Notes under the pieces: generated by a model
Told to the model about the DNA's origin: nothing
The model's input: only the letters and a program-made list of their open reading frames with translations
Databases searched by the model: none
Origin: Patescibacteria group bacterium
GTDB lineage: Bacteria; Patescibacteriota; Minisyncoccia; Phycocordibacterales; PALSA-1337
Length of the DNA: 64,000 nucleotides
Direction: 5' to 3'
NCBI GenBank assembly: GCA_038065415.1
Contig: JBBTRA010000002.1
Span: 13,646 to 77,645 of the forward strand
Translations under genes and position numbers: made by a program
Shown here: piece after piece, positions 26,363 through 60,549 of the stretch
Layout of the letters: each line of letters begins with the position of its first letter
Position numbering within the stretch: the first letter of the stretch is position 1

Positions 26363-26365
26363 ATA

Positions 26366-28270: not shown

Positions 28271-28271
28271 G

Positions 28272-29315: not shown

Positions 29316-30703
29316 GTGGTTCTACGTTTCAAGGCTAGCTCTATCGGACGTATCACGCAATATGCGCTATAAGCCTTCGATTCTGCATTGGTCTTGCCAT
29401 AGAGCTCTCCCATACCTAGATGTCTGAGTAGGCCGTATATTTTGGGGATTGACAGTATTTTTTGCACTCCTTTTTTCCAAGCAAGTTTCTTATGAGCCTT
29501 CGTAAGGGTTGAATTTATCGAGCGAACATAGGCAGGATCGAGTACTTCTCCGAGGATCGCCTCATCGAGTGGAGGCAGCTGACCTTCCTGTATTATCTGG
29601 AGATTGAGAGTGTTATTGCCATCACAGGTGAGACCATCATTTTCGATATCGAGTTTGTGATCTGCAAAGTATTTCTTTTGCCATGATCGGCCAGAGCGTT
29701 CATCTGCTCCGATTGAGAGCATACCGAGTGCAACTTCTGGATCGAGGAAGGGAGACCATGGTTTCCAGGAAAAATGCTCGGGAATCTGATAGAGATAGGT
29801 GAGCAGAATGAGCTTCATACGGGCAAAAAGTATTGGTTGGTAGAATGAGTCATTTATCCTGTTTTTGTGGCGCTCGAAATACGCGGTTCGAAGTGCACGA
29901 TCTGATTTCAGAAGAGATTTGGTATGGTCAGCATGGTCTCCGTGATTACGGGACAAGTTGACGAGGTCACCCTCCGAAGTAATGGGATCAAAATGCACAT
30001 GTCCCGCCCAGAGGTCCCCGATGATGCCACTCAAGAATGCCTGTGCTCCAGGAGCGCTCTTCTTGCGAACTTCTCCGAAGAAATCTAGATGATACATGCC
30101 GTGTGCGTGCACCGCGGGTCCGAACATACCATCCCATTCTTTGAGATATGCTTGAGAATTATGAAGAGGGATGAAGCTCCATTCGAACCCGAGGCGTTTG
30201 GAGGTTTCTGCTGCTCGTATCACTTCGCAGGAACGATGCTGTTCTTCAGATGTGCCATAGGTGAATGCACGCACGCGTGCAGGTTCGCCCAGCATGCTGC
30301 CGAGCAAGCGTGAATCGTAACCACCACTCAAAGGAAGGGTGATAGGTCCCTCGATGCTTTTTTCCCATGTTCTGACTTTGTCTGTGAGTAGGGCAGTCAT
30401 TTCTTCCGGAGTACATATACGCCTATCCGCTGACTCGATCGGGTCAGGAAGCTTTTCTATGAACAATTTTCCTGACTCATCGACGGTGATACGTTCACAT
30501 GCTCCGAGGAATTTTACGTCCTGTATAGGCGTCTGTCCGAAGACCGAGTAGCCAAATTCGAGATAGTTGTTGAAGCCTTCAGGATGGAGCGTCAAATTAG
30601 AATAGTTGATGACGTCGTGTATCGAATGACTCACGGCACCTGTCTTCTCGTTGTAGAAGACAGGTCGCGATGCTAGCCAATCTGTTTCAAAGGTCTTCTT
30701 CAT
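29312..30703 (-). CDS. Asparagine-synthetase-like PP-loop ATP pyrophosphatase (amidotransferase candidate, no obvious N-terminal glutaminase Cys)
   Basis: PP-loop ITLPLSGGYDSRLLGSMLGE (cf. AsnB SGGLDSS); start placed at MKKTFETDW (1 nt after upstream stop); alternative upstream starts would overlap DUF362 gene. Confidence 0.5.
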   Translation of the reverse strand: MKKTFETDWLASRPVFYNEKTGAVSHSIHDVINYSNLTLHPEGFNNYLEFGYSVFGQTPIQDVKFLGACERITVDESGKLFIEKLPDPIESADRRICTPEEMTALLTDKVRTWEKSIEGPITLPLSGGYDSRLLGSMLGEPARVRAFTYGTSEEQHRSCEVIRAAETSKRLGFEWSFIPLHNSQAYLKEWDGMFGPAVHAHGMYHLDFFGEVRKKSAPGAQAFLSGIIGDLWAGHVHFDPITSEGDLVNLSRNHGDHADHTKSLLKSDRALRTAYFERHKNRINDSFYQPILFARMKLILLTYLYQIPEHFSWKPWSPFLDPEVALGMLSIGADERSGRSWQKKYFADHKLDIENDGLTCDGNNTLNLQIIQEGQLPPLDEAILGEVLDPAYVRSINSTLTKAHKKLAWKKGVQKILSIPKIYGLLRHLGMGELYGKTNAESKAYSAYCVIRPIELALKRRTT

Positions 30704-30704
30704 A

Positions 30705-32255
30705 TTAGAGTTCAATATGTCCACGCCAACCTCTTTGCGGAATGAAATTCGCATGATTTTTGCGTATACCATCGACGGAGACATATGAAGGATCGTTGCT
30801 CTTCACGGGTATAGCATCGAGGTTACCCTTCCATCTCTTCAGCCAGGATCTCTTGAGTCCGACACGGAGTGTGGCCATCTTATCTGCATCGAATCCCATG
30901 TAGGTCACGCTGACCGCATCGGCCGCTAGCGGGTTGAGACTGCCTATGAGCGTGCCAACCCTTTTATCCGAAGGGCGGAGCGGACCCTCAGCTTCTCCAG
31001 CGATGATACCGTCGGTGAGCGCCAAGAATATTCTCTGTGGAGTATTTTGCAGGGCTCCTTGTCTGTCGGAATACAAGATGATGCGGATGAGATCGAGGCT
31101 CATGCGCCATGCGGTATCGTTGCCGTACCATGATCCACCGTTGATGTTGCCAATATAGTCTTTTCCACATTTCTTGCGACCGATACGATCTGCGACGCCT
31201 TGTCCGTAGTATTGTATCGGACGTAGGAACCAGCGGTATATGGTATCTGCCAGCTTGTTCTCATGGGAGAGTACATGAAGCTCGCCCCACATGCGGAAGC
31301 GATTGAGTGCATTCTGGAACATGCCAAGATCAGGGTACTCGTCTCCACCGCGTGACGGGTCGCCGATCCTGCAGTGGGGGATATAATTCTTATCTCCCTG
31401 GGTTCCGACCATTGATTTGATATTCAGTGTGGCGCCAACCTTCATGTGTGTCTTGAGCTTGGGTACGGAGATGATGACGTCGGCATTGAGGAATGTCTGA
31501 GCAACCTTGTAGCGATGTGCGCCACCGGTATGGTTGCGTACCGTGTGTTGATTGTCGTAGTCGGCACCATAGAAGAGTGAGCATTGTTTCTCGGTGAGTT
31601 TCGCAAATTCGCTGCTGCCGCGGAGATCGATCTCACGATATCCGGCGGGGTCGCGTTCTTTGATTTCGCGTAGACTCGATGGGCTATAGCCACTCTTTGC
31701 ATCCCACGGAGCGATGAGGGTGCGCAAATCGTAGACTTCGAGATCGAAATTCTTTTCCTTCTTATAAAGTGCAATCATCTCATCCATACCTGTGATCTTC
31801 CTCCAGTTGTCGAAATTCGAGGGTATGATCGGCGCATCAGCGATGACGATTCTACCGGTGCCGCCGAGCGCGATGTACGCATAGTCGACAAGCGCGCGCA
31901 TGACTGATCCGTGGGTGATGCTCGCAAATGAAGATGCTGCGCGATTGAGGTTTTTGTCCCAGACGGCATTGGGCTTGATGACTACAGTATTACCCTTAGC
32001 TATGATGTCCGAGAGAGGGTTCCAATTCTTCGTTCCGTAGTTTTGTGCATCGAAGCCAAGGGTGTGTAGTACTTCGCGTACCCCCGAGTATGCGGGATTC
32101 TTCACCCCTGTACTTATGGTATCCACGCCAAAAGGATATTCTGGATATGCCTCGTCGGGATGGTAGGGTGCTGTCTCGAAATATTCGGTTGCGCCTGTTT
32201 TCCAGATTGCTACGGTTGCCTGCTCGAGAAAATCTTTTTTGGTGAATCGGGTCAT
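30705..32255 (-). CDS. DUF362-family protein (516 aa)
   Basis: …KGNTVVIKPNAVWDKN…GGTGRIVIADAP… matches DUF362 hallmark (xLIKPNLV … IVGD/AP). Confidence 0.5.
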   Translation of the reverse strand: MTRFTKKDFLEQATVAIWKTGATEYFETAPYHPDEAYPEYPFGVDTISTGVKNPAYSGVREVLHTLGFDAQNYGTKNWNPLSDIIAKGNTVVIKPNAVWDKNLNRAASSFASITHGSVMRALVDYAYIALGGTGRIVIADAPIIPSNFDNWRKITGMDEMIALYKKEKNFDLEVYDLRTLIAPWDAKSGYSPSSLREIKERDPAGYREIDLRGSSEFAKLTEKQCSLFYGADYDNQHTVRNHTGGAHRYKVAQTFLNADVIISVPKLKTHMKVGATLNIKSMVGTQGDKNYIPHCRIGDPSRGGDEYPDLGMFQNALNRFRMWGELHVLSHENKLADTIYRWFLRPIQYYGQGVADRIGRKKCGKDYIGNINGGSWYGNDTAWRMSLDLIRIILYSDRQGALQNTPQRIFLALTDGIIAGEAEGPLRPSDKRVGTLIGSLNPLAADAVSVTYMGFDADKMATLRVGLKRSWLKRWKGNLDAIPVKSNDPSYVSVDGIRKNHANFIPQRGWRGHIEL

Positions 32256-32264
32256 ATGTGTGAG

Positions 32265-33221
32265 TTAGTAGAATACACGATTCGGCTTGGTGGTCACGAA
32301 GAATTTCTCCTTACCCTTGTAGTACTCCCAGTCGATGCCTGTACGATCAAATATGATGAAAGGTACATTGCCATACCATGCGGCAAAAGGGCCAAAGGTG
32401 CTGTCTGAGCCGATGATCACGTCGGTTGCGGCCAAAGTGAAAAGGTCTTCCGCAGGAGATCCTGTGGGGAAGAATGCGTTAATACTTTTGAAATGGTCAG
32501 GGTTGAGCTTCTCATCGGAGCATATCACGAAGCAGATGTCTTGGGTTTGCATGCCGGATTGTGTGACATACTCAGTGAGTATTTTTTCAACCTGCTGTGG
32601 TTCGAAGAAGAATTTCTTCTCTTCGACATAACGATAATCACCGAGGCGGAAGTGGACACCGACGACGTGTTTGAAATTAGCACGAGGATAAGCGAGTACA
32701 GAGGAGACGTGGGTTCGCACTTTTTTCTTAGGTTTAATCGCGGTCATGATGTCAGCTCGATATTTTTCCATGCCAATCGGATTGCGGTACATCCATCCAG
32801 TCACATATGCAGCACTGTCGCCTGAGTCCTCAATCATTTTGAGTTTGCGTGCCTGATCCGTATCAGCTACCTCGGTCGGCGGCAAATAGAAAGGACGCCA
32901 AGAATCAACTTCTACAGTATCGTTGATTGTTTCTGGATGTTTGGCGAGAGTGCGTTTGGTATATTTTGGAAATACCCAATGTCTGAGTGGAGACCATTTC
33001 CTGAAGGATATTTTCCGGAGCGGCGAATAGAATAGCAACCAAATCAGCCAGTTGCCTACAGGCATCTCTATTTCATCGCTGTATGTTGAGAAACAATAGT
33101 TCCTGAACTCATAGCCCTTCTCTATGCAGTACGCATAGAGCGCAGCAGAAGGCCAGAGCTGGTTGCCGAGACGGCCGCCATAATGTTGAAGGTAGACTAT
33201 TTTTTTCTTGGAGGGTGTCAT
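32265..33221 (-). CDS. Glycosyltransferase family 11-like (alpha-1,2-fucosyltransferase family)
   Basis: HFRLGDY (cf. GT11 HxRRGDY), …VICSDE…, …IIGSDSTFGPFAAWYGN…. Confidence 0.6.
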   Translation of the reverse strand: MTPSKKKIVYLQHYGGRLGNQLWPSAALYAYCIEKGYEFRNYCFSTYSDEIEMPVGNWLIWLLFYSPLRKISFRKWSPLRHWVFPKYTKRTLAKHPETINDTVEVDSWRPFYLPPTEVADTDQARKLKMIEDSGDSAAYVTGWMYRNPIGMEKYRADIMTAIKPKKKVRTHVSSVLAYPRANFKHVVGVHFRLGDYRYVEEKKFFFEPQQVEKILTEYVTQSGMQTQDICFVICSDEKLNPDHFKSINAFFPTGSPAEDLFTLAATDVIIGSDSTFGPFAAWYGNVPFIIFDRTGIDWEYYKGKEKFFVTTKPNRVFY

Positions 33222-35770: not shown

Positions 35771-36835
35771 TTATACCGCCTTTCGGGGCCTGAATATATT
35801 GATAATAGGCTGCAAAAATGGCCTGATGAGATCCTTGAACGCCCACCACCAGAGAGGGAAGGCGACAGTCTTCAGCTCATCCGAAATACCTGTACGCTGG
35901 ATAGTTCCGGCGATAAAATCGGGCTGTATCATGCGGATGGTTTTCATCGCCTTGTAGAGCTCGTTGCGGTACTGATTATAGATGAGCCTTTTGATGAAGG
36001 TTGGTTTACCATAGTTGTGAGCCGTCTTGGCTATAGAGACCCTGAACGGTGATGGCAGAAAATATATTTTGAAGCTTGAGAAATGGAAAAAGATGAGTGG
36101 AACATCATCGATCATTACTACTCCATTTTTACGGTATATTTTGTCCTTGAAATTGCCAATGCACCATGGGGCGAGATTGGATCCCTTGTGGGTGAGAATG
36201 TAAACGCCTTTGAATTTTTCTTCAAAAAAGTCGAGATACTTCTGATCGCCAAAACGGTCAGGTTCTACTCGCGCGTAACACCATTCGATACATTTGTCGC
36301 TCCACCAGGTTAGACATGCTCGACCATCGTCATCGTTTCTGAAAATCACCATGCCGACATTGTATTTCCCCACATCCTTCTCTTTGTGGCGACGATTCTC
36401 TGGGTGATTGTGTGGAATGATAAGAGTCGAATTGTTCCCGAAGAGGTCAAATATAGGCTGTACCGATGAATAGAAGTAAAGGTCGGCGTCGACGTAGATG
36501 ACGAGTTGAGACGCATCACCTGGATCTGTATAGTTTTTCATTACATGCTGAGTGAATCCGCTTCCGAGCGTCCAACAGTATTCTTCGAGAGTTCTGGTTT
36601 TTTTCGTGGCGGCAATCGCTGGCTCTTTTTGTTCGAATTCAACACGACTTACGAGAGTGACGCGTGGTAGCGCGAGTTTCGTGAGTAATGCATGAGATTC
36701 TTCGTCAACGCAGAGGATATAGAGTTGGAAAGGCTGGGGTGCATATCTTATGAGCGACGCATGAAGTGCGAGTCCACGATTGGTGAATCCTTTATCGAAC
36801 AATGTTACGTAGAGATGCTTCATGATTTTTTGCAT
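35771..36835 (-). CDS. Putative GT-A-fold glycosyltransferase (DxD: …IYVDADLYF…)
   Basis: MQKIMKHLYVTLFDKGF…; 1-nt gap to rfbB start; no confident family. Confidence 0.4.
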   Translation of the reverse strand: MQKIMKHLYVTLFDKGFTNRGLALHASLIRYAPQPFQLYILCVDEESHALLTKLALPRVTLVSRVEFEQKEPAIAATKKTRTLEEYCWTLGSGFTQHVMKNYTDPGDASQLVIYVDADLYFYSSVQPIFDLFGNNSTLIIPHNHPENRRHKEKDVGKYNVGMVIFRNDDDGRACLTWWSDKCIEWCYARVEPDRFGDQKYLDFFEEKFKGVYILTHKGSNLAPWCIGNFKDKIYRKNGVVMIDDVPLIFFHFSSFKIYFLPSPFRVSIAKTAHNYGKPTFIKRLIYNQYRNELYKAMKTIRMIQPDFIAGTIQRTGISDELKTVAFPLWWWAFKDLIRPFLQPIINIFRPRKAV

Positions 36836-37617
36836 AGATAGCTGGTTATTAATACGGGCTCACCAAGACCTGGAACATTCATCGAACTGATGGTTTCACT
36901 CGCTGCAACGTCGAGACCGTATTTCTTGAAGAGGTCGAATAGTTCAGACTCATTGAAGAATATCTCGAACATTGGCAGGCCATAGCCGATCTTTTCTGCA
37001 TAGGTTGTCGATGTCGATCTCACGACTGGCGTGCGGTGAAATAATGCATACTGCGTAGCGACGCGAGCGGTCTCGGCAATAGCCTTCTCGTAATCGATAA
37101 TATGGAGTATACAGCAGCCTGATATGGCGATATCGAAAGATGTATCAGGATATCCGAGTTTTGTAGCGTCTTCAGTCCGAAATGATATACCCGGATGCAG
37201 TTCTTTTGCTTTTGCTACAAAAGCCTCTGAATAATCACATCCTTCATATGAGACCTCGAGTCCTGCGTCTTTGAATACATCTGCGTAATATCCTGTCGAG
37301 CAGCCAATTTCGAGGATGGTCGGCTTGGTCAAATGTGTTGCACGGATAAGTTTAACTGCAGCTTCATAGACAGGTGCGCTTTTAGGGGATCGAGCGTTAA
37401 CTTTGAGCTGTTGGGCAGGAATAGATGAATCCTTCCAGATATCCTCATATTTTCTTTTAAGTTCTGCGAGATTTGGATTTTTCAGAATACTATAGTGGCC
37501 CGAAGCTTTTTCTGTGCGAGGACGCAGAGTATACAAACACTTTTTAGCGAATGACCAAAGTGGCGTTGGTATGACGGACTTCAGATTGCGGAGCTTGTTT
37601 TTTAGAGTATTCTTCAT
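36820..37617 (-). CDS. Class I SAM-dependent methyltransferase
   Basis: …ILEIGCSTGYYADVFKDAGLEVSYEGCDYSE…FDIAISGCCILHI…. Confidence 0.65.
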   Translation of the reverse strand: MKNTLKNKLRNLKSVIPTPLWSFAKKCLYTLRPRTEKASGHYSILKNPNLAELKRKYEDIWKDSSIPAQQLKVNARSPKSAPVYEAAVKLIRATHLTKPTILEIGCSTGYYADVFKDAGLEVSYEGCDYSEAFVAKAKELHPGISFRTEDATKLGYPDTSFDIAISGCCILHIIDYEKAIAETARVATQYALFHRTPVVRSTSTTYAEKIGYGLPMFEIFFNESELFDLFKKYGLDVAASETISSMNVPGLGEPVLITSYLCKKS

Positions 37618-37623: not shown

Positions 37624-38340
37624 TTATTTCTTTGCCACGATAATATTATCCATGTAGAGATCATTATTCTTCGGCAGTATCCGGTACAGGATGGATCCGA
37701 TTATTGTTACCGGCGCTATGAGTATGGCATAGCTGAGTAGCTTCAGGTAGTAGTTCTTGAAAGGGAGCGACTTGTGGATATAGCAGGCGATAAGCTGGAA
37801 TATCACGCGAATATCGTTGAGGCTTTTTCGGTGCTCGATAATCGTGAAGCCATGTTCTTTGAGGAGATGTGCAACGCCAAATGAAGAATACCGCGCATAG
37901 TCGTAAGGTTGGGAGTGCTCGTCCCAGACGAACGGCACGCTCATGAGTATGCTGCCGCCCTTCTTGAGGGTGCGGTTGATTTCTGTAAGGAATTCGTCGG
38001 GATTGAAGACGTGTTCAAGCACTTGAGTGAATATGATGCCGTCAAAGGTTTCGTCTGCAAAAGGGAACTTCTTAGTGTCGTAGAACACATCTATCTGCTT
38101 GATCTTCCTATTCTCCGGAGAGTCGTAGTCCATGCCGATATATTCGGTTGCGTGCGTGAAAAGCTTCTCATAGGGCTTGGTGCCGCAGCCGACATCCAGA
38201 ACTTTGCCGGTGATGTGGCTGCTCAACTCCTTCATATTCTGGTGCAAGGCGCGGCGCACGAAATAGAATGGGTTGAAGACCATGCCGAGGAGCTTCGGGT
38301 TGTATTTCTGCGACTGAATTTTTTGGAAAAATTTCGACAT
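37624..38340 (-). CDS. Class I SAM-dependent methyltransferase (paralog of 39259..40035)
   Basis: Start at Met36 (revcomp ATG 38338-38340): MSKFFQKIQ…FNPFYFVRRAL…VLDVGCGTKPYEKLF…. Confidence 0.6.
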   Translation of the reverse strand: MSKFFQKIQSQKYNPKLLGMVFNPFYFVRRALHQNMKELSSHITGKVLDVGCGTKPYEKLFTHATEYIGMDYDSPENRKIKQIDVFYDTKKFPFADETFDGIIFTQVLEHVFNPDEFLTEINRTLKKGGSILMSVPFVWDEHSQPYDYARYSSFGVAHLLKEHGFTIIEHRKSLNDIRVIFQLIACYIHKSLPFKNYYLKLLSYAILIAPVTIIGSILYRILPKNNDLYMDNIIVAKK

Positions 38341-38362: not shown

Positions 38363-39262
38363 TTATGAGCGGATCTTATTGATAATTCGACGGATGATGC
38401 TCGGTTTTTTTGGTCGGAGATAGTCGGCGAACAGTGCGCGTGCACGAGAGTCTTCTTGGAGCGGGATCCGTTCGGCCCGGATCTTCCGGTCAGATAGCGT
38501 ACTGCGGTATTTCAGTGTCTTCTTGGAGTGTGTACCGGTCGTGTCATGACCGATGTTATCGACGAGCGATATGCCCGGATAGAGCGTGAGTTTTGCTGCT
38601 AGAAATGAGGAGGCGTGCCAGCGTACTGCCCAGGAATTGTTTGTGCCGGCAATCTGACCTTTCAACATATCAGTGAAAGGGTACGATCCATCGAGATCGA
38701 ATGCTTGTGTCAGATTTTGTTCCTCGAGTTGTATCAAGAGGGCCTTACCGTCTGGATTGAATTCGGCCCAGGCTCTCTTCCAAGTAGCCCAGCCCCAGCA
38801 GTCTGCACCTCGCAGAAAGAATGTCTCGGGAAGTTTTTCCTTTACAGCGTAGCTGTACCCGTGGATGCTCGCTACTTTGTTATCGTGTTTGTAGAGGTTG
38901 AGTCCGTCGTTCATATAGGTGAGGAAATATGGTGAAGTGACGAGATCGTCCTCAACGATAATTATCTGCTCGTATGTGTTCACGATCTCGGTGACACCAG
39001 TGATGATTGATTTGGCCAGGCCGTAATTTTCCGCACGCTCTACTATATGCACAGATTTGAAACCTGCAACTGATTTGAGGTATGTGCGAACAGCAGTGAC
39101 TCCTTCCAGTGCCGCTTCATTCTTGGCTCCATCGGCGAAGATGAAAAGATCGCTTTCGGCAGCAAGCATATTCTGCTGCAGAGCTTCAATCGTTTTTTGT
39201 GTATGCTCAGGACGATTGTAGACAAAGAGGGCTATGGGGGCGTAATTTTTCATGGAGTTCAT
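38363..39262 (-). CDS. Glycosyltransferase family 2-like
   Basis: …APIALFVYNRPEHTQKTIEAL…IIVEDDL… (DxD); start MNSMKNY forms ATGA overlap with upstream stop. Confidence 0.6.
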   Translation of the reverse strand: MNSMKNYAPIALFVYNRPEHTQKTIEALQQNMLAAESDLFIFADGAKNEAALEGVTAVRTYLKSVAGFKSVHIVERAENYGLAKSIITGVTEIVNTYEQIIIVEDDLVTSPYFLTYMNDGLNLYKHDNKVASIHGYSYAVKEKLPETFFLRGADCWGWATWKRAWAEFNPDGKALLIQLEEQNLTQAFDLDGSYPFTDMLKGQIAGTNNSWAVRWHASSFLAAKLTLYPGISLVDNIGHDTTGTHSKKTLKYRSTLSDRKIRAERIPLQEDSRARALFADYLRPKKPSIIRRIINKIRS

Positions 39263-40035
39263 ATTTTTCGGGCCGTCACAATATAGTCGAGAGTGATACC
39301 TTTCTTGCTGAAGATACGATCGAACACGAGGCCGATGATCTGTATTGGCGCACATACAATAGCTATGATTATGCGTGAACCAATGAATTTCAACTTATAT
39401 CTGAGGCCTGATAATCCACCACGATCGAGCAGGGAGTTTGTCCAGTCTATAAGGAAGTCAGACATAATCTGTGCACATGTTCCGAAAATACCTGTGGTGT
39501 GCTCGATCTTCTTGATCTCGAAGCCGCATTCCTTGAGTAGCTTCTGGTGTCCGAAGGAGGTGAATCTCTGAAAATCGTAGGGTTTTTCATGTTCGGGCCA
39601 TACAAATGGCATCGATAAAAATAGTGTTCCTCCGGGTTTGAGTACACGATGTATATCCTTGGTCAATTCGGGCAGGTACTCTACATGCTCGAATACCTCA
39701 GAGGCTATAACAATATCGAACTTCTCTGCAGGGAAAGGTATATTTTTACCATCGAAGAAAAGATCAGCATCCATAGCGCCACGATCATGGCCGCTTTCGG
39801 AAACTTCGATGCCGGTATACTCGTTCCCTTTGAAAAGTTGCTCGTAAGGCTTGATGCCGCAACCGACATCAAGGATGGAATTTCCGGGCTTGAGCGTTTT
39901 GGAGAACTCAAAGAATTTTCGGTATAGATGCCTTCGTGTGATAAAAAATGGGTTCAAGAATATTCCGAACCAGCGTGGGTTAAACGCGTGGGCATCCTCA
40001 ATCTGGCGTATTTTGTTTTCTATGAATTTCTTCAT
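39259..40035 (-). CDS. Class I SAM-dependent methyltransferase (paralog of 37624..38340)
   Basis: MKKFIENKIRQIED…FLNPFFITRRHLYRKF…ILDVGCGIKPYEQLF…; ATGA overlap with upstream gene. Confidence 0.6.
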   Translation of the reverse strand: MKKFIENKIRQIEDAHAFNPRWFGIFLNPFFITRRHLYRKFFEFSKTLKPGNSILDVGCGIKPYEQLFKGNEYTGIEVSESGHDRGAMDADLFFDGKNIPFPAEKFDIVIASEVFEHVEYLPELTKDIHRVLKPGGTLFLSMPFVWPEHEKPYDFQRFTSFGHQKLLKECGFEIKKIEHTTGIFGTCAQIMSDFLIDWTNSLLDRGGLSGLRYKLKFIGSRIIIAIVCAPIQIIGLVFDRIFSKKGITLDYIVTARKI

Positions 40036-41141: not shown

Positions 41142-41145
41142 GGAT

Positions 41146-41844: not shown

Positions 41845-41852
41845 ATTGATAG

Positions 41853-43127
41853 TTATTTCCGCTCTACGACACTCCACTTTTGGTCAATGAAGATGGGGCT
41901 ATGTGCGGTCTGCACGCCTGTGCCGTAATAGTCACCTTCATCAACACGGAACACGGCTACATTCTTGACATGGTCTTCACGATTTTCACCTGCATGGAGA
42001 TCCACTGAGACGCCATAGGTCCCTACATTGAGTGGGAACTTCTGGTCGATGCTACAGCGGATGACTCCTTTTTGTGGGAGGGTGGCAAATTGTTCTTTGG
42101 TCAGATTGGTCGAAGCGAGGATGAGTGGTGTACCAGACTCTGCAGTGATGGAGAAAGTTGCGTTCACGTCATTCACAGGAGACCCGTCAGTCGTATATTC
42201 GAAGCAGAGTGTGTATGAGCCTCCTGTCTTGAGTGTGTTGACCTTTTTGCCATTTTCCTCAATGAAGAATGAATCTATCTTCACGCGCCCCGCACCTTTG
42301 CGGTCATGGCGCATGCGGACATCGACACCTTTTTCGCGCACGAGCGGATCCTTGAGATACATGCTGATAATTTCATCAGTGTCTCCTGATGCTTTGACCA
42401 CACCCTTCTCGATGAGGATGCAACGGTTGCAGAGTTTCCTGACAGCTTCCATGTTGTGACTGACGAATAAGATCGTGCGGCCGTCCTCACGGGTGATCTG
42501 ATCCATTTTGCCGAGACATTTCTTCTGGAAATCGGCATCGCCCACAGCGAGCACCTCATCGATGATGAGGATGTCTGGCTCCATGTGTGCTGCCACCGAG
42601 AAGGCGAGGCGTACGTACATACCGCTGGAATAGTATTTTACCGGCGTATCGAGGAATTTTTCGATCTCTGCAAATCTGACGATCGCATCGAACTTGGAGG
42701 CCATCTCTTTTCGGGTCATGCCGAGGATGGCGCCATTCAAGAATATGTTCTCGCGGCCAGTGAGTTCCGGATGGAAGCCGGTTCCGACTTCGAGCAGGCT
42801 GCCGACCTTGCCGTGAAGCGTGATCTCGCCTTCGGTGGGCGAGGTGATCTGGGAGAGGATCTTGAGTAGGGTAGATTTTCCGGCCCCATTGTGACCGATG
42901 ATGCCGACCACTTCACCAGGATTCACTGTGAAGTTGATATCTTTGAGTGCCCAGAAGACCTCTTTCTTGGTGAGCCCTGTCATATCCTTGAATTTCGAGC
43001 CGAGGTAACGCAAGGGATGCTTGAATGCATCGGTGATCACGTCGCGCAGAGCGATATATCCACCACGTTCATGTGTGATCTTGTAGCTCTTGGCGATATT
43101 CTTTACTTCGATGATGGGGGAGGACAT
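41853..43127 (-). CDS. wzt: ABC transporter ATP-binding protein for glycan export (Wzt/TagH-like) with ~170-aa C-terminal extension
   Basis: Walker A GHNGAGKSTLLKIL, signature YSSGMYVRLAFSVA, Walker B ILIIDEVLAVGD, H-loop FVSHNM; residues ~255-424 form an extra β-rich domain. Confidence 0.8.
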   Translation of the reverse strand: MSSPIIEVKNIAKSYKITHERGGYIALRDVITDAFKHPLRYLGSKFKDMTGLTKKEVFWALKDINFTVNPGEVVGIIGHNGAGKSTLLKILSQITSPTEGEITLHGKVGSLLEVGTGFHPELTGRENIFLNGAILGMTRKEMASKFDAIVRFAEIEKFLDTPVKYYSSGMYVRLAFSVAAHMEPDILIIDEVLAVGDADFQKKCLGKMDQITREDGRTILFVSHNMEAVRKLCNRCILIEKGVVKASGDTDEIISMYLKDPLVREKGVDVRMRHDRKGAGRVKIDSFFIEENGKKVNTLKTGGSYTLCFEYTTDGSPVNDVNATFSITAESGTPLILASTNLTKEQFATLPQKGVIRCSIDQKFPLNVGTYGVSVDLHAGENREDHVKNVAVFRVDEGDYYGTGVQTAHSPIFIDQKWSVVERK

Positions 43128-43141
43128 ATATATATAGAATG

Positions 43142-43984
43142 TTAGACGATATCAGCGAAGTACCTCTCGACCTTTTTGAAGACATAGATTCCCACAATGA
43201 GCAGTATGAAGCAGGCGATGAGCGAGATGCCAAGGAGGAGCCAGTTGATCGGCGCGGTACCGAGGAGTGCCGCGCGGGCATTCTGGATGACTCCCATCAT
43301 CGGGTTGATGGCCAAGAATTTCGAATATGCTCCGGCGATCGAGGCGGGGTAGATGACCGGAGTTACGAAGAGGAGGAGCTGAATGAAGAAAGGCAGTGCG
43401 TAACGGACGTCACGGTATTTTACATTGATCGAGGCAAGGATCAGTCCACCGCCAACCGCTGCCATGAAAGTGATGAGAAGGAGAAGCGGTATGAGAAGCA
43501 GGCCGCTGATGTGCGGCGTATATCCATAGTAGAACATCAGGCCGACGAGGATGGCCGCAGCAATGGCAAAATCTACGAGCTTGGTGATGACCGAGGAGAT
43601 GGGGAGTATGAGGCGCGGGAAGTAGACCTTGGTGATGATTGCCTGGTTGCTGATGAGTACATTGCTGGTGTCGCCGAGCGCGCTCGAGAAAAATTGCCAG
43701 AAAATAAGACCGACATAGACGAAGATCGGGTAGGGGACGCCGTCAGAAGGCATCTTGGCTAGTCCTCCGAAGAAGATGGAGAAGACCACCATGGTGATGA
43801 AAGGTTGGAATATTGCCCAGCCTGCACCGATGACAGTCTGCTTGTAGCGGACCTTGAGGTCACGCCAGGTGAAGAAGTAAAGGAGCTCCTTGTAGTTCCA
43901 GAGTTCGCGGAGATCCGAGAAATGGAATATCTTCTTTGGTTTGATAGTCGTGATGATGCTCATGAGAGAAATGTATTCTAGCAC
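43142..43984 (-). CDS. wzm: ABC-2 type transporter permease (Wzm-like)
   Basis: 280 aa, six TM helices; adjacent upstream of Wzt; first gene of minus-strand run. Confidence 0.75.
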   Translation of the reverse strand: MLEYISLMSIITTIKPKKIFHFSDLRELWNYKELLYFFTWRDLKVRYKQTVIGAGWAIFQPFITMVVFSIFFGGLAKMPSDGVPYPIFVYVGLIFWQFFSSALGDTSNVLISNQAIITKVYFPRLILPISSVITKLVDFAIAAAILVGLMFYYGYTPHISGLLLIPLLLLITFMAAVGGGLILASINVKYRDVRYALPFFIQLLLFVTPVIYPASIAGAYSKFLAINPMMGVIQNARAALLGTAPINWLLLGISLIACFILLIVGIYVFKKVERYFADIV

Positions 43985-44012
43985 TTTTTACCCAGTAGGT
44001 GATCCTGCTGGA

Positions 44013-44261
44013 TCACCACTTATTTATCTTGTCCACGACCTTCTTCTTGAGACCGAGGTATGACTTGACTGCTTCTTGTTCGAGTTCAGGGGAGAGGACG
44101 CGGAGTATTTCTTTGCCGAGGATACGATACTGCCCGCCGACTTTGTTGGCGCGGAGGAGTCCTTTCTTGAGCATGCGCTTGATCGTGCTCTCGCTTACAC
44201 GGAGTATGTCTTGTGTTTCGCTTGTCGTATAGACGCCATGAGGTTTTATCTCTTCTGTCAT
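44013..44261 (-). CDS. Small helix-turn-helix DNA-binding protein (excisionase/MerR-type HTH)
   Basis: 82 aa; …YTTSETQDILRVSESTIKRMLKKGLLRANKVGGQYRI…. Confidence 0.6.
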   Translation of the reverse strand: MTEEIKPHGVYTTSETQDILRVSESTIKRMLKKGLLRANKVGGQYRILGKEILRVLSPELEQEAVKSYLGLKKKVVDKINKW

Positions 44262-44364
44262 AGAGCTCTATTCTAGCAAAGTGTCAAAAGGTGTCAAGTT
44301 GGTTCACTAGTAAAAAGCCTTTGATTGGGGCCCTATTTAAGCTTTAATTAGCGCTCTATAAATA

Positions 44365-44393
44365 TTGACAAATAGCATTATATATGCTATACT
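44365..44393 (+). promoter_or_regulatory. Near-consensus sigma70-type promoter (TTGACA-17 nt-TATACT)
   Basis: TTGACA at 44365-44370, 17-nt spacer, TATACT at 44388-44393; followed by RBS AAGAGG 8 nt before ATG 44466; region also carries GTGTCAA direct repeats (44291-44309) and TAGAGCTCTA palindrome (44261-44270). Confidence 0.5.
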
Positions 44394-44465
44394 TAGTACA
44401 GGATTTAAGCTCCCAATTGTGGGAGATTCGTGGGTATAACCAAAAACAAAAAGAGGACATTTACA

Positions 44466-44801: not shown

Positions 44802-44823
44802 CCACCGTTACATATCAATGGGA

Positions 44824-44852
44824 AACCGTTGATGTGTAACGGTTTTTCATTT
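44824..44852 (+). terminator. Rho-independent terminator (AACCGTT-gatgtgt-AACGGTT + TTTTCATTT)
   Basis: Perfect 7-bp stem 23 nt after stop of 44466..44801. Confidence 0.6.
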
Positions 44853-44956
44853 GCGGAGCTTCCTCGTGGCGGCGTCGATTACATGTCCGTGGCATGTTTG
44901 GGATAGGCGTGGTATATTTTGCGGTACTTACCAAATAACCATCAGCGTCCATTACT

Positions 44957-47170
44957 ATGAACCTCCAGAAAATCCTCCGTTCGTTGTCCGTTGGTCTCAT
45001 TTTTCTCATACCTATCTTCCCACTGATCGTCGCGGACGGGTTCTTCTTTCCATTTATTACGGGCAAAGCGTTCTATTTCCGCATCTTGGTTGAGGTTGCT
45101 TTCGTTGCATGGATCCTGTTGGCATTTCTTGATGCAAAGTATCGTCCTCGATTCACCGCGCTTACCATCAGTGTAACGCTCTTCGCTGTCATCACCCTGA
45201 TCGCCGATCTTCTCGGAGTCAATCCAGTCCGCAGTATGGTCTCAAACTTCGAGCGCATGGAGGGCTGGTTGGTTATTGCTCATCTCTGGATGTTCTACAT
45301 GACCGCTACTCATCTTTTTGGCCATGATGAAGAGGGTAAGCGCATGTGGCGTCGTTGGTTCAACTTCTCGCTGGGTGTCGCGGTCGTAGTAGTAGGATAC
45401 GCGTTTGCTCAGATGTTTGGCTGGGCGGAGATTCATCAGGGTAGTGTCCGTCTCGATGCTTCACTCGGCAATGCTGCATATCTTGCGGTGTACATGCTCA
45501 TGCATGTAGGTATAGCTGCGTACCTCTCCTTCGTTGCCTATGCCGGCAAGATCGCTAATGCTAGTTTTCTGAAGTGGGCGTATCCGCTCCTGGCGCTTGT
45601 ATTCAGCTTCATTATTATCCAAACACAGACTCGCGGAACGATCATCGGCTTGGCAGGTGGTGCTCTGCTCGCCCTTGCTCTATATGCTCTCTTTGCCAAG
45701 AAAGAGTCGATACGCTCCCGTTCTATAGCGGCTGGTGCCATTGGCCTCATCTTGGTACTTACTGGTGCACTCTTCTTGAGCCGCGATACAGCCTTCGTCA
45801 AGAATAGCCCGTCCCTCAACCGTATCGCATCTATCTCGCTCACTGATACCAAGACGCAGGCACGTGCCTATGTGTGGCCGATGGCTCTCAAGGGCTTCAC
45901 TGAGCGCCCAATTCTCGGATGGGGTCAGGAGAATTTCAACTATGTGTTCAATCAGCACTACAATCCGAAGATGTGGAATCAAGAGCAGTGGTTCGACCGC
46001 GCTCACAGCGTCTTCCTTGATTGGTTGGTCGCGTCAGGGGCTGTTGGTGTGCTCTCGTATCTCGCACTCTATGTTTTTGCACTCATGGCTGTGTGGAAGT
46101 CGAGGATTACTATAGCTGAGAAGAGCACTCTCACGGGTCTCATCGTGGGATATGCTGTCCACAATATTTTCGTGTTCGACAACCTCGCCAGCTACGTCTT
46201 CTTCTTTGCGATCCTGGGATTTGCCGGTTCACTCGGATCTGCTGAACGATCTTCCAAGTCCAAAGTAGAGAAGTGGCTCGAGACCAAGACATTCAGCCGT
46301 GATGCAGTCGAGTATATCGTCGCCCCGATCGCTATCGTCGCGCTCGCTGCAGGAATATACTTTCTTAATGTTCGTAATATTCAAGCCAACACTAGCTTGA
46401 TAGACGCTTTGAGAGCGTGCTCCACGGCTGGTCGTGCGGATATTGCGCTTTTTGAAGGTCTTTTCAAGATTGATTCCGCAATGGCTGCTCAGGAAGCACG
46501 TGAACAGCTCATTTCATGTGCTACTGGCGTAGTTAGCAACCCATATCCAGGTCCGGTCAAGCAAGCTTTCTACGATCTGACAGTCAAGCAGATCCAGGAA
46601 CAGATTGCGGATGCTCCCGAAGATGCACGCATGTATATTCTCGGAGGTCTCTTCCTGAGCAATCTCAATCAGACCGCAGAAGCGAAGAAGCTCCTTGAGA
46701 AGGCTCGCGAACTGACTCCAGGTAAGCAGGCGGTAGCATTCCAGCTCGCCACTTTGTATGTGGCCGAGGGCAAGAAGGATGAAGCACTTGCATTGCTCAA
46801 GACAGCGTATGATGCAGATCCTACATATGATGATGCTCGCTCAGCATATGCAACCTCTATGATTATTGCCGGCAAGGATGCTGAGGCGCGCGTGCAGTTC
46901 GATAATGACCCTACTATCTTCGAGACCCAGCGCGCAGCTCAGGCATATGCCTCGCTCAAGCAGTATGATAAGGCGATAGCTATATACAATAGGCTTATCG
47001 CTGCCGATGCCAAGAACGTCAATCTCCGTACGGCACTTGCACAGACACAGTATTCTGCTGGCATGACCTGGTCAGCGACTGAGACTTTGCGCGCTATTGC
47101 CAAGGATTTCCCTGAGTACAAGGAACAGATAGATGCTGCTATCAAGGAGGTACAGGCTGGCGCAAAATAG
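44957..47170 (+). CDS. O-antigen ligase/polymerase-like (Wzy_C-type) membrane protein with C-terminal TPR repeats
   Basis: ~10 TM helices in N-terminal 470 aa; C-terminal …AEAKKLLEKARELTPGKQAVAFQLATLYVAEGKKDEALALLKTAYDADPTYDDARSAYA… TPR-like. Confidence 0.55.
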   Translation: MNLQKILRSLSVGLIFLIPIFPLIVADGFFFPFITGKAFYFRILVEVAFVAWILLAFLDAKYRPRFTALTISVTLFAVITLIADLLGVNPVRSMVSNFERMEGWLVIAHLWMFYMTATHLFGHDEEGKRMWRRWFNFSLGVAVVVVGYAFAQMFGWAEIHQGSVRLDASLGNAAYLAVYMLMHVGIAAYLSFVAYAGKIANASFLKWAYPLLALVFSFIIIQTQTRGTIIGLAGGALLALALYALFAKKESIRSRSIAAGAIGLILVLTGALFLSRDTAFVKNSPSLNRIASISLTDTKTQARAYVWPMALKGFTERPILGWGQENFNYVFNQHYNPKMWNQEQWFDRAHSVFLDWLVASGAVGVLSYLALYVFALMAVWKSRITIAEKSTLTGLIVGYAVHNIFVFDNLASYVFFFAILGFAGSLGSAERSSKSKVEKWLETKTFSRDAVEYIVAPIAIVALAAGIYFLNVRNIQANTSLIDALRACSTAGRADIALFEGLFKIDSAMAAQEAREQLISCATGVVSNPYPGPVKQAFYDLTVKQIQEQIADAPEDARMYILGGLFLSNLNQTAEAKKLLEKARELTPGKQAVAFQLATLYVAEGKKDEALALLKTAYDADPTYDDARSAYATSMIIAGKDAEARVQFDNDPTIFETQRAAQAYASLKQYDKAIAIYNRLIAADAKNVNLRTALAQTQYSAGMTWSATETLRAIAKDFPEYKEQIDAAIKEVQAGAK

Positions 47171-47256
47171 GCTCTTGACTCGATAGAGGGCAGTGATATA
47201 CTAGCGATGTGAGTACCCATGTGTGGGACTTCCAATAAATAAATGTTTCGCAAAGT

Positions 47257-59748: not shown

Positions 59749-59755
59749 ATCAACC

Positions 59756-60544: not shown

Positions 60545-60549
60545 AACTC

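Follow-up and report, generated by a model that had tools for sequence, protein, structure and literature searches.

A Wzm/Wzt Glycan Exporter with a Predicted Carbohydrate-Binding Domain in a Methyltransferase-Rich Locus of Patescibacteria

Gene content of the locus

Patescibacteria (CPR) are uncultivated, ultrasmall, monoderm episymbionts and, to our knowledge, their surface chemistry is essentially unknown. The locus described here lies in a 64-kb stretch of DNA, hereafter called the window, from a groundwater MAG of this group; its features are collected in table 1 and its relatives in other CPR genomes are designated by L numbers. The interval 41853-43984, assigned to a Wzt ATPase in a preliminary description, contains two genes: the lower part does encode Wzt, in a reading frame that includes both of the peptides quoted in that description, whereas the upper part is a separate gene, wzm. 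Wzm is likely to start at the ATG at 43963, giving 273 residues, has six hydrophobic segments and shares 70-80% identity with its CPR relatives. The gaps following wzm, wzt and the first methyltransferase gene (MT1) measure 14, 11 and 4 nt, respectively, an alternative GTG start of MT1 at 41877 overlapping wzt, and intergenic distances range from -80 to +49 nt throughout the co-directional array. This array opens with the gene of an HTH_17 protein, and a near-consensus promoter lies 9 nt 5' of its start codon. Since such sites are no more numerous in the region than expected from shuffling, it is the position alone that makes this promoter suggestive, and we regard it as the probable start of the operon. 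An Rfam search of positions 40000-48000 gave no match.

Downstream of wzt, the locus is dominated by methyltransferases (MT) of 189-347 residues. The number of seven given earlier agrees with the Pfam annotation, but their placement downstream needs correction: five are co-directional with wzt and downstream of it, whereas MT6 and MT7 lie on the plus strand in a convergent gene block. MT2 (hydrophobic residues 229-247) and MT3 each carry one C-terminal transmembrane segment. The matches of MT1-MT5 in PDB and NCBIfam are generic class I methyltransferases only and thus allow no assignment of acceptor specificity; nothing in these searches linked them diagnostically to WbdD or characterized sugar O-methyltransferases. 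The Glyco_trans_1_2 glycosyltransferase (GT) that follows MT1, for which the PDB search found no solved relative by sequence, is a candidate for the chain-extending or terminal GT of the wzm-wzt-MT-GT block. The GT-A protein encoded between MT2 and MT3 is homologous to the N-terminal half of 541-residue GT::TylF-methyltransferase fusions that follow wzt elsewhere in CPR (phmmer E 1e-22 with the L004 fusion), and is 61% identical to its homologue in L009, where an orthologue of MT3 is 62% identical.

Beyond MT4 lies the gene of a 354-residue protein that recurs in nine of 10 CPR loci with 34-51% identity and is fused to a dehydratase in L004. The three adjacent nucleotide-sugar genes together constitute a predicted dTDP-3-amino-3,6-dideoxyhexose route, and the distal array includes a 634-residue protein with 17 hydrophobic segments. 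On the other side of the operon head, a divergent gene encodes a Wzy_C+TPR membrane protein with about 13 hydrophobic segments, homologues of which lie beside wzm in L006 (53% identity), L008 and L009; its search against PDB sequences returned TPR proteins only. We consider it a candidate for the transferase moving the exported glycan onto its acceptor. Neither an initiating phosphoglycosyltransferase nor an obvious acceptor protein was found in the window, which also contains no SLH/S-layer or Bac_transf gene. Near the wzt gene of the related locus L089, a Bac_transf gene does occur.

Table 1. Features of the exporter locus, with positions in the window
Feature	Position	Strand	Evidence
Wzy_C (O-antigen-ligase/PglL-type) + C-terminal TPR membrane protein, 737 aa, divergent	44957..47170	+	Wzy_C 72.2 bits, TPR_19, TPR_14
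Sigma-70-like promoter, TTGACA-16-TAGAAT with TG	44270..44297	-	11/12 hexamer positions match
HTH_17 DNA-binding protein, 82 aa, first gene of array	44013..44261	-	Pfam HTH_17 46.4 bits
wzm, ABC-2 type permease	43142..43984	-	Pfam ABC2_membrane 56.5 bits
wzt (424 aa)	41853-43127	-	ABC_tran + Wzt_C (Pfam)
wzt nucleotide-binding domain, residues 1-260 including hinge helix 250-259	42348..43127	-	ABC_tran, motifs, fold
wzt carbohydrate-binding domain, residues ~270-424, beta-sandwich/jelly roll	41856..42320	-	Wzt_C profile + predicted fold
MT1, class I SAM methyltransferase, 231 aa	41146..41841	-	Methyltransf_11 59.4 bits
Glyco_trans_1_2 glycosyltransferase, 369 aa	40032..41141	-	PF13524 116.3 bits
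MT2, SAM methyltransferase	39259..40035	-	Methyltransf_23 67 bits
GT-A (GNT-I/GT2-like) glycosyltransferase	38363..39262	-	weak Pfam GNT-I, Glycos_transf_2
MT3, SAM methyltransferase	37624..38340	-	Methyltransf_23 60 bits
MT4, SAM methyltransferase	36820..37617	-	Methyltransf_11 56.4 bits
Conserved protein, 354 aa	35771..36835	-	no Pfam or NCBIfam match
dTDP-glucose 4,6-dehydratase-like gene	34765-35769	-	TIGR01181 346.6 bits, just below cutoff 365
FdtA-type 3,4-ketoisomerase	34320-34754	-	FdtA 124.5 bits
DegT aminotransferase	33235-34326	-	DegT 401.7 bits
Distal array: GT11-like, DUF362, Asn-synthase-like, MT5, 634-aa protein, 275-aa ORF	25535..33221	-	
MT5, tail-anchored methyltransferase	28272-29315	-	Pfam
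MT6, convergent glycosyltransferase block	23826-24395	+	Pfam
GT, convergent glycosyltransferase block	22762-23826	+	Pfam
MT7, convergent glycosyltransferase block	22148-22765	+	Pfam

The two domains of Wzt

Residues 61-192 of Wzt match the ABC_tran profile of Pfam (88.7 bits), and the motifs of the nucleotide-binding domain, hereafter abbreviated as NBD, are all found: Walker A (GHNGAGKS, 78), the signature (YSSGM, 166), Walker B (ILIIDE, 186) and the H-loop (SHN, 223). The domain superimposes on the NBD of Aquifex aeolicus Wzt (6m96/6amx) with a TM of 0.86, normalised to the target. Its end, previously placed near residue 250, coincides in the full-length model with a terminal helix spanning residues 250-259, and the β-rich character ascribed to the C-terminal extension is recovered in the predicted structure at residues ~282-396 plus a terminal strand. 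In the sequence search, residues 56-384 align with full-length A. aeolicus Wzt across both domains (E 3.5e-66), and the top seven fold matches of the full-length model are again full-length A. aeolicus Wzt (31% identity, E 2e-39), the best match of the entire protein by sequence as well as by fold. By homology, wzm and wzt encode an ordinary Wzm/Wzt sugar-chain exporter with a known chain-end-reading domain on its ATPase.

This C-terminal domain, hereafter abbreviated as CBD (carbohydrate-binding domain), is recognized at residues 274-403 by the Wzt_C profile (PF14524; 64.7 bits, E 1.2e-17, cutoff 30.4). The AlphaFold model of residues 250-424 (pLDDT 87, pTM 0.83) is ordered, and its 17 best PDB matches in Foldseek are exclusively Wzt CBDs (E 7.6e-9 to 4.2e-7), namely 2r5o, 6o14/8dky, 5hno/5hnp and the CBD of full-length A. 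aeolicus Wzt, from Escherichia coli O9a, A. aeolicus and Raoultella terrigena; RhoGDI-like Ig folds rank after them (E 1.3e-5 vs 4.2e-7). Since profile and predicted fold both indicate a Wzt-type CBD, the outcomes that the preliminary description had named as evidence against its proposal, disorder or a non-carbohydrate-binding fold, do not apply, and by these two lines of prediction the domain is a member of the Wzt_C family. In the monomer model of the CBD alone, a low-confidence loop precedes the last strand (residues 416-422), which folds back onto the domain, and in that of full-length Wzt this strand is unpacked and of low confidence; these models, of monomers only, are compatible with strand exchange in a CBD dimer without demonstrating it.

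The likeness to solved CBDs rests on fold comparison, because a phmmer search of PDB sequences with the CBD alone gave chance matches only and no solved CBD. With the CBD as the only query, word-indexed homology searching found no match, although it did find relatives of full-length Wzt; an exhaustive HMMER search found 706 relatives, and peptide patterns derived from the CBD identified no confirmed locus in metagenomes. In an alignment with the A. aeolicus CBD of ~18% identity, only His350 of the cap-pocket residues is kept (His378 here), and a counterpart of Trp362, which stacks on the methyl group, was not identified. In the same ~18%-identity alignment, the positions corresponding to the cap pocket are hypervariable within the CPR clade and the scaffold residues are invariant.

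Related CPR loci and characterized systems

CPR loci for comparison were collected by a homology scan of genome contigs, which gave at least three of them, plus a look-up of contigs encoding relatives. Methyltransferases were counted with seeds taken from stretches of the CPR loci that Pfam verified as methyltransferase only, seeds which may undercount these enzymes in the non-CPR comparison set; a second phmmer iteration was discarded, as it expanded from 124 to 339 ORFs by drifting into GTs via methyltransferase-GT fusion proteins. The gene directly after wzt encodes a SAM methyltransferase, of varying family, in 10 of 11 CPR loci, with a mean of 3.3 methyltransferases in the 6 kb downstream of wzt, vs any methyltransferase in the 6 kb upstream in one locus of 10. 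The trio HTH_17-wzm-wzt is common to nine of 10 related CPR loci, where the HTH_17 protein keeps its position with 61-78% identity. The putative capped-glycan export module thus outlined is widespread in Parcubacteria-type genomes, nearly always with HTH_17 at its head and a methyltransferase after wzt. Where the source is named, the closest 60-odd relatives of Wzt among the matches listed (52-68% identity) come from Parcubacteria, Paceibacterota, Falkowbacteria or Azambacteria.

Across the CPR loci, the identity of the NBD is 70-96% and that of the CBD 23-79%, divergence being far faster in the CBD than in the ATPase domain. Divergence specific to the CBD is seen in L006 and L009, with 23-35% identity to other loci while the NBD retains 70-77%. 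The four loci in which GT::TylF fusions adjoin wzt (L004, L007, L008 and L090) cluster together by their CBD (63-79%), their NBDs also being the closest (86-96%), and loci of the MT1 type are weakly separated from those of the TylF type by CBD identity (about 50% vs about 45%). The three loci having CBDs closest to that of the window (L087, L088 and L089) contain positional orthologues of MT1, directly 3' of wzt (40-47% identity), of the Glyco_trans_1_2 GT, after MT1 (39-49%; present also in L007), and of MT4, which adjoins the Glyco_trans_1_2 gene in these loci and in L007 (49-54%).

The order HTH_17-wzm-wzt-MT-GT corresponds to the known succession wzm-wzt-terminator-polymerase, as found in E. 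coli O8/O9a, in the TET operon of Pseudomonas syringae and in the S-layer glycosylation cluster of Geobacillus. With A. aeolicus WzmWzt (7k2t, 8dku, 6o14, 8dky) our system shares the two-gene transporter and the architecture of NBD, hinge helix and CBD (TM 0.75 for the CBD, normalised to the target, at ~18% identity). In A. aeolicus, the CBD recognizes 3-O-methyl-mannose or -rhamnose as the cap, and the export of capped chains requires this domain (PMC9445017); in contrast to the CPR host, A. aeolicus is a diderm that places the glycan on LPS. E. coli O8/O9a (Klebsiella pneumoniae O5/O3), with the genes wzm-wzt-wbdD-wbdA, exports only capped chains and provides the best fold match of the CBD (2r5o); it has the same order of transporter, methyltransferase-containing terminator and GT, but its acceptor is LPS, unlike here. 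Moreover, its WbdD is a large coiled-coil ruler combining kinase and methyltransferase in O9a, whereas the methyltransferases of our locus are small and without detected coiled coil, a crude scan finding no 35-residue heptad-patterned segment in any of 25 locus proteins. A ruler-type terminator was rejected, as MT1-MT4 have no WbdD match, MT5 only one at E 0.006-0.009, and no kinase domain was found.

Stand-alone enzymes are encountered in the common polysaccharide antigen operon TET of P. syringae, ordered wzm-wzt-MT-GT (PMC7820976), in which a small SAM methyltransferase and a GT1 directly follow a CBD-bearing wzt; the two are fused in some isolates, as in some CPR loci. That antigen, however, is an LPS component of a diderm with a D-rhamnan backbone, and the sequences are not close. 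The slg clusters of Geobacillus stearothermophilus NRS 2004/3a and Paenibacillus alvei belong to monoderm hosts and place overlapping, methyltransferase-containing biosynthesis genes after wzm-wzt. The G. stearothermophilus order is wzm-wzt-wsaE, the methyltransferase of WsaE forming a 2-O-methyl cap, and O-oligosaccharyltransferases of the Wzy_C+TPR type include WsfB and PglL (PMC2943079). Our locus resembles these clusters in the tight packing of wzm-wzt-MT-GT together with a divergent Wzy_C+TPR gene similar to their Wzy_C-type enzymes (WsfB with TPR), and also in having an Asn-synthase homologue and Fdt/Qdt-type aminosugar genes (PMC2943079). It differs from them in that no S-layer structural gene or WsaP/WbaP-type initiating transferase was found in the window, in having rmlB only and not the full rml set, and in its many more methyltransferases. 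Wall teichoic acid exporters of the TagGH/TarGH type also serve monoderm hosts and have a homologous NBD (6jbh, 7dd0, 9cfl), and TagH models rank top in NCBIfam. The identity as TagH is nevertheless rejected because the cutoffs are missed (210 vs 538 bits for PRK13545, 187 vs 320 for PRK13546) and the C-terminal fold is different, a Wzt_C jelly roll; no TagF/TagB/TagD-type synthesis genes were seen in the window.

Probable export of a capped glycan and its alternatives

The preliminary description had reasoned from O-antigen systems. An O-antigen is not supported as the destination here, given that the phylum is monoderm (PMC11665869) and that Pfam annotation reveals no lipid A or core genes in the window; the product would therefore not be a classical LPS O-antigen and would not be ligated to lipid A-core. 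[quoted passage not shown] Judged by its counterparts in E. coli O8/O9a, R. terrigena O12 and A. aeolicus, the CBD would recognize a modified non-reducing terminus on completed chains, which would restrict entry into the channel to chains that have been terminated. An O-methylated terminal sugar is the most probable cap. It would be made by a methyltransferase of the same operon, for which synteny and the co-variation of the CBD with its neighbours suggest MT1, directly after wzt, as the leading candidate and MT4 as the second. The glycan would probably then pass to the adjacent Wzy_C+TPR enzyme for transfer to a surface protein or other envelope acceptor, as in the S-layer glycosylation of Geobacillus and Paenibacillus. 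Further methylation of the lipid-linked glycan is the most likely role of the other methyltransferases, three of which are tail-anchored membrane proteins; some may act on internal residues or on nucleotide sugars, with N-methylation of the 3-amino sugar as one example. Taken as a whole, cap-gated export of a glycan that probably ends in a methylated sugar, with MT1 as the leading candidate for the capping enzyme, and its delivery to a non-LPS envelope acceptor form an explanation that we consider probable, with some reserve. The earlier argument, leading from the CBD to a chain-terminating cap made by a neighbouring methyltransferase, is consistent with gene order and comparative genomics; the chemistry of the cap, the enzyme responsible and the binding are inferred.

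A functional CBD could instead read a feature other than a methyl group, namely a dedicated terminal sugar or a repeat-unit epitope, while the methyltransferases decorate internal residues or nucleotide sugars, possibly N,N-dimethylating the latter as in the mycaminose and desosamine pathways. The terminal sugar might then be added by the GNT-I-like or the Glyco_trans_1_2 GT and could be the 3-amino-3,6-dideoxyhexose of the RmlB-FdtA-DegT pathway encoded in the locus. Seven methyltransferases exceed the needs of one cap, known caps include Kdo and phosphate besides methyl, the equivalents of the pocket residues are unlike the methyl-binding pocket of A. aeolicus, and homologues of the GT-A protein recur beside wzt, in the TylF fusions mentioned above. 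Yet the position directly after wzt, held by a methyltransferase in nearly all of the CPR loci, is that of the terminator in characterized systems, and the Pfam annotation of the window shows no gene for the Kdo pathway, a kinase or a GT99/GT137-type terminator; we judge this explanation rather unlikely.

Much less probable is that the CBD has been kept for dimerisation or ATPase regulation and gates export no longer, which would then be coupled to polymerisation as with CBD-less Wzt or TagH. The poor conservation of the pocket-equivalent positions and the best NCBIfam scores of the NBD, on TagH and galactan-Wzt models, could be taken in this sense, but the TagH cutoffs are far off, a full-length CBD with strongly conserved scaffold motifs is found in every CPR relative, and variability confined to the pocket, in a CBD that partly tracks its neighbour enzymes, is predicted by diversifying ligand specificity and not by decay. 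As to a conventional LPS O-antigen locus of a diderm, arising from a mis-binned contig or an LPS-making lineage, we find it scarcely credible: full-length relatives with 42-48% identity are common, among the matches listed, in Cyanobacteria, Planctomycetota, Acidobacteriota and Bacteroidota, and the Wzy_C protein might in theory act as a WaaL ligase, but its TPR repeats resemble PglL and WsfB instead, an identical Wzt is encoded in a Patescibacteria MAG, where its contig measures 87.6 kb, and in independent 0.1-um-filtered groundwater assemblies, and the CPR affiliation of the closest named relatives, the conserved HTH_17-wzm-wzt trio and the lack of lipid A or core genes in the window all oppose it.

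For transporter biology, capped-glycan export governed by a probable methyl cap adds nothing to the established paradigm of a cap-reading CBD. It is the host alone that is unusual, a monoderm, LPS-less CPR bacterium in which this exporter heads a large, methyltransferase-rich surface-glycan locus; a literature search, with the CBD/terminator survey of Mann et al. 2019 (PMID 31504498) outside its scope, found no link between Patescibacteria and Wzt. The value of the finding thus lies in CPR biology, as a testable handle on surface display and its variation among lineages that could bear on host recognition. We tentatively raise the possibility that Parcubacteria-type CPR share an HTH_17-wzm-wzt(CBD)-MT operon for a heavily O-methylated, hydrophobic and end-capped glycan, the export of which would be gated by the cap and followed by Wzy_C+TPR-mediated attachment to surface proteins (pili or S-layer-like), with the CBD and the adjacent methyltransferase diversifying together. 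If true, the ~37-kb locus would represent a large investment for genomes that are reduced in general, no surface-glycoconjugate pathway would have been defined in CPR before this operon, and its strain-specific surface glycans would amount to a monoderm 'serotype' system relevant to host attachment.

Wzm, Wzt and the C-terminal domain

The stretch 41853-43984, which the preliminary description had labelled as a Wzt ATPase with an additional C-terminal domain, does encode such a protein but contains two minus-strand genes rather than one, wzm and wzt. Wzm is recognized by Pfam as ABC2_membrane (56.5 bits), and Wzt combines ABC_tran at residues 61-192 (88.7 bits) with Wzt_C (PF14524) at residues 274-403 (64.7 bits, E 1.2e-17; gathering cutoff 30.4 bits). 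Both peptides previously cited from the protein are present in its ORF. The motifs of the nucleotide-binding domain (NBD) are intact, namely Walker A (GHNGAGKS, 78), the signature YSSGM (166), which is of the Wzt type, Walker B (ILIIDE, 186) and the H-loop (SHN, 223). Alignment with the full-length Wzt of Aquifex aeolicus (8dku/7k2t) spans residues 56-384 and hence both domains (E 3.5e-66).

A sequence search with the last 167 residues matched no solved structure. The structure of the C-terminal domain was predicted from residues 250-424 aligned with 49 full-length relatives, and the model (mean pLDDT 87.1, pTM 0.83) folds as an all-beta sandwich with some 11 strands. Its 17 best PDB matches in Foldseek are exclusively Wzt carbohydrate-binding domains (CBDs): that of E. 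coli O9a ranks first (2r5o, E 7.6e-9), the others being from A. aeolicus (6o14/8dky; target-normalized TM 0.75, rmsd ~2.9 Å), Raoultella terrigena (5hno/5hnp) and the CBD parts of full-length A. aeolicus WzmWzt. Ig-like sandwiches of the RhoGDI/NPC2 type come next, at clearly poorer scores (E 1e-5 or worse, TM ~0.45). On this model the region is neither disordered nor of another fold; the structural comparison that had been proposed thus agrees with the Pfam assignment in identifying a Wzt carbohydrate-binding domain, as had been suspected. For the full-length model (pLDDT 79), the seven top-ranking PDB matches are all full-length A. aeolicus Wzt (E 2e-39 to 2e-37), with CBD-less Wzt, TagH and TarH NBDs ranking below. 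The two genes encode an ABC exporter of the Wzm/Wzt class, and its CBD is truly of the Wzt type. Identification as TagH was rejected, since the score remains far from the NCBIfam equivalog cutoff (210 vs. 538 bits) and the C-terminal fold is that of Wzt_C.

A low-confidence loop precedes the terminal strand (416-422), which the full-length monomer model leaves unpacked, a position compatible with the C-terminal strand exchange of CBD dimers without proving it. With the CBD alone as query, exhaustive HMMER searching retrieved 706 representative clusters at E<1e-3; the family is very large, and this protein is an ordinary member.

The glycan gene array and its methyltransferases

Downstream from 44261 to 25535 run 19 co-directional minus-strand genes, spaced by -80 to +49 nt. 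Their order is HTH_17, wzm, wzt, MT1, a Glyco_trans_1_2 glycosyltransferase (GT), MT2, GNT-I-like GT-A, MT3, MT4, a conserved 354-aa protein, dTDP-glucose 4,6-dehydratase-like, FdtA 3,4-ketoisomerase, DegT aminotransferase, GT11-like, DUF362, Asn-synthase-like, MT5, a membrane protein with 17 hydrophobic segments and a 275-aa ORF. In all, glycan genes occupy ~37 kb of the window. Seven methyltransferases had been placed downstream of wzt; the number is upheld by Pfam (start codons were refined after detection), but just MT1-MT5 lie downstream on its strand.

Coordinates of the glycan genes and neighbouring features in the window
Feature	Position	Strand	Remarks
TraG/VirD4-like coupling ATPase	5333-7342	+	
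GT4, GT2, UDP-sugar dehydrogenase-like and methyltransferase block	10638-25538	+	convergent with array
UDP-glucose/GDP-mannose dehydrogenase-like	13970-14845	+	291 aa
UDP-glucose/GDP-mannose dehydrogenase-like	20178-21071	+	297 aa
MT7	22148-22765	+	class I SAM methyltransferase (Pfam)
MT6	23826-24395	+	class I SAM methyltransferase (Pfam)
Membrane protein with ~17 hydrophobic segments	26366-28270	-	634 aa
MT5	28272-29315	-	class I SAM methyltransferase (Pfam)
Conserved protein	35771-36835	-	354 aa
MT4	36820-37617	-	class I SAM methyltransferase (Pfam)
MT3	37624-38340	-	class I SAM methyltransferase (Pfam)
GNT-I-like GT-A	38363-39262	-	
MT2	39259-40035	-	class I SAM methyltransferase (Pfam)
MT1	41146-41841	-	class I SAM methyltransferase (Pfam)
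wzt	41853-43127	-	424 aa
wzm	43142-43984	-	280-aa ABC-2 permease
HTH_17 protein	44013-44261	-	82 aa, excisionase/MerR-like
Sigma-70-type promoter, near-consensus	44270-44297		9 nt upstream of HTH_17 gene
Promoter-like site of 111-aa ORF	44365-44393		
111-aa ORF	44466-44801	+	
Hairpin with T-run, terminator-like	44804-44843		18-bp stem
Wzy_C+TPR membrane protein	44957-47170	+	divergent from array, on its other side
Protein with two HTH_17 stretches	56810-57943	+	377 aa
WxL-interacting/fn3 surface proteins	58762-62127	+	

MT2, MT3 and MT5 each end with a single hydrophobic helix, which suggests tail-anchored membrane enzymes whose substrate would be lipid-linked and not a soluble nucleotide sugar. 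MT5 also carries an N-terminal CxxC...CxxC of zinc-ribbon-like appearance. The 634-aa protein has only a weak LIC_10190-family match, and PMT_2 (GT-C) proteins occupy comparable positions in three related loci (L004, L006 and L087); these proteins suggest extracytoplasmic glycosylation of the exported glycan.

Other genes of the region deserve mention. The 354-aa protein, which has no Pfam or NCBIfam match, is kept in 9/10 related wzt loci (34-51% identity), usually between the methyltransferases and the dehydratase, and L004 has it as part of a 673-aa fusion with an RmlB-like dehydratase; an uncharacterized enzyme of glycan biosynthesis is the probable identity. The 111-aa ORF, located between the operon and the Wzy_C+TPR gene, has its own promoter-like and terminator-like sites, and the public assemblies L001 and L002 likewise annotate it as a gene. 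The two short dehydrogenase-like proteins have N-terminal and central domains, with no match reported to the C-terminal domain of their family, and a similar 264-aa gene lies just upstream of HTH_17 in L087. The genes for the TraG/VirD4-like ATPase, the protein with two HTH_17 stretches and the WxL-interacting/fn3 surface proteins flank the glycan region and may have mobile-element or cell-surface functions; the surface proteins could be glycosylation targets.

Related CPR loci and divergence of the CBD

We compared the window with ten related loci of CPR bacteria (L004-L009 and L087-L090), hence 11 loci in total. The HTH_17-wzm-wzt trio is conserved among them, identity being 70-80% for Wzm and 52-68% for Wzt. 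The HTH_17 protein directly upstream of wzm is about as conserved as the transporter (61-78% identity in 9/10 loci) and may serve the glycan operon as its dedicated regulator. Methyltransferases were detected by phmmer with Pfam-verified seeds from CPR loci: one lies immediately 3' of wzt in 10 of the 11 loci, at least one is found within 6 kb downstream in all 11 (mean 3.3), and any within 6 kb upstream in only 1/10. In the listed non-CPR loci whose CBD is similar, a methyltransferase directly follows wzt in 8/33 and lies within 6 kb in 20/27, counts that may be too low because the seeds came from CPR loci.

The methyltransferase family next to wzt varies between CPR loci. It is an MT11-type enzyme of ~230 aa, orthologous to MT1, in L087, L088 and L089; a divergent MT11 in L006; MT21 in L009; MT24, followed by a TylF fusion, in L090; and, in L004, L007 and L008, a GNT-I-like GT fused to a TylF-type methyltransferase (541 aa). 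The GNT-I-like GT-A of the window is homologous to the N-terminal half of these ~541-aa fusions (L004 11274-12899, L007 11268-12881, L008 11286-12911, L090 10245-11849), which may be combined modules that add a terminal sugar and then methylate it, an arrangement reminiscent of WsaE. The block wzt-MT1-Glyco_trans_1_2-(MT)-MT4 is kept in the closest relatives of the window. The window's own MT2-GT-A-MT3 segment, most similar to L009 (61-62% identity), seems to have been inserted after the GT and before MT4.

Across the 11 loci, NBD identity is 70-96% vs. 23-79% for the CBD. The four loci with TylF fusions are 63-79% identical in the CBD and 86-96% in the NBD; since their NBDs are also the closest, they are simply nearer relatives. 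The CBDs of L006 and L009 are 45% identical to each other and 23-35% to those of other loci, whereas their NBDs still show 70-77% identity to all others. The window CBD is closest to MT1-type loci (59, 53 and 48%) and only 31% identical to that of L009, despite the common MT2-GT-MT3 block.

Methyl-dependent binding in A. aeolicus lies in the 10-500 µM range. The cap is bound there by Asn313, His350, Ile299, Leu300, Thr346, Ala348, the trap loop 353-355 and Tyr233 (PMC9445017). Their tentative equivalents in the window, mapped through an alignment of ~18% identity, are S339, H378, F325, S326, S374, D376, E381-R383 and Y257/L258. The pocket positions thus mapped are highly variable within the CPR clade (at position 378, for instance, 18 sequences have F, 7 have D, 4 have L and 3 have H), while the scaffold and hinge residues Y257, R273, D275-G278, Y311, P365, G369, Y371 and D385 are invariant or nearly so. 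This pattern fits diversifying ligand specificity, the CBD appearing to behave as a fast-evolving specificity module, and it makes MT1 and MT4 better candidates than MT2 and MT3 for producing the feature read by the window CBD.

Host, proposed mechanism and alternatives

An identical Wzt occurs on an 87.6-kb contig of MAG GCA_964357625.1 and in Hainich groundwater assemblies (0.1-µm filter fraction); the NCBI source name is 'Patescibacteria group bacterium'. The closest 60-odd relatives among the matches listed share its architecture at 52-68% identity and, where the source is named, belong to Parcubacteria, Paceibacterota, Falkowbacteria or Azambacteria. Full-length relatives including the CBD (42-48% identity) are widespread in diderm phyla among the listed matches, which also include a methanogen MAG. 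The relative in L034 (Methanobacteriota MAG) is 48% identical to query residues 4-418, so through the CBD region; it did not reach E<1e-3 in the CBD-only phmmer search. There and in L033 (Methanomassiliicoccales MAG), the next downstream gene is a methyltransferase. In the part of the literature searched, nothing was found that connects Wzt or O-antigen-type export with Patescibacteria. This phylum is described as monoderm (PMC11665869), so the product cannot be a classical LPS O-antigen.

In this monoderm host, a methyltransferase and a GT are encoded immediately 3' of wzt, an arrangement parallel to wzm-wzt-wbdD-wbdA of E. coli, wzm-wzt-MT-GT of the P. syringae TET operon (PMC7820976) and wzm-wzt-wsaE of G. 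stearothermophilus. By analogy with characterized systems, the glycan would be finished in the cytoplasm on a polyprenyl carrier; a terminal modification would halt elongation and be bound at the interface of CBD and hinge helix, and ATP binding would displace the CBD, allowing the chain to be threaded through Wzm (PMC9445017). Synteny suggests an O-methylated sugar as the cap and MT1 as its maker. Given the host type and the neighbouring gene, the Wzy_C+TPR enzyme, homologues of which adjoin wzm in L006, L008 and L009, may transfer the exported glycan to protein or another envelope acceptor, as do the S-layer O-oligosaccharyltransferases WsaB and WsfB; WsfB and PglL also have TPR repeats.

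A coiled-coil ruler of the WbdD/WbbB type was rejected: the methyltransferases are small, MT1-MT4 do not match WbdD, and a crude heptad scan detected no coiled coil in 25 locus proteins. MT5 matches WbdD marginally, in the SAM-binding region only (E 0.006-0.009). Control of chain length, if there is any, would need another basis, terminator/polymerase stoichiometry for instance. Among the Pfam-annotated genes of the window, no terminator candidate of the Kdo, kinase or GT99/GT137 kind was seen.

The main alternative, rather unlikely though plausible enough to be weighed, has the CBD recognizing a terminal feature other than a methyl group, for example a dedicated terminal sugar added by one of the GTs, with the methyltransferases decorating internal residues or nucleotide sugars; the locus has an RmlB-FdtA-DegT route to a 3-amino-3,6-dideoxyhexose, from which an N-methylated sugar could be made. 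The conserved scaffold makes a vestigial CBD quite improbable, and the CPR-specific synteny renders an origin from a mis-binned diderm hardly credible.

The Wzt_C domain of exactly this protein is already in public precomputed Pfam annotations, and cap reading by the CBD is textbook knowledge. The new elements are the monoderm CPR host of a cap-reading type of exporter, the conserved HTH_17-wzm-wzt-MT module in Parcubacteria-type genomes, and a CBD that diverges much faster than the NBD, partly tracking the neighbouring methyltransferase family.
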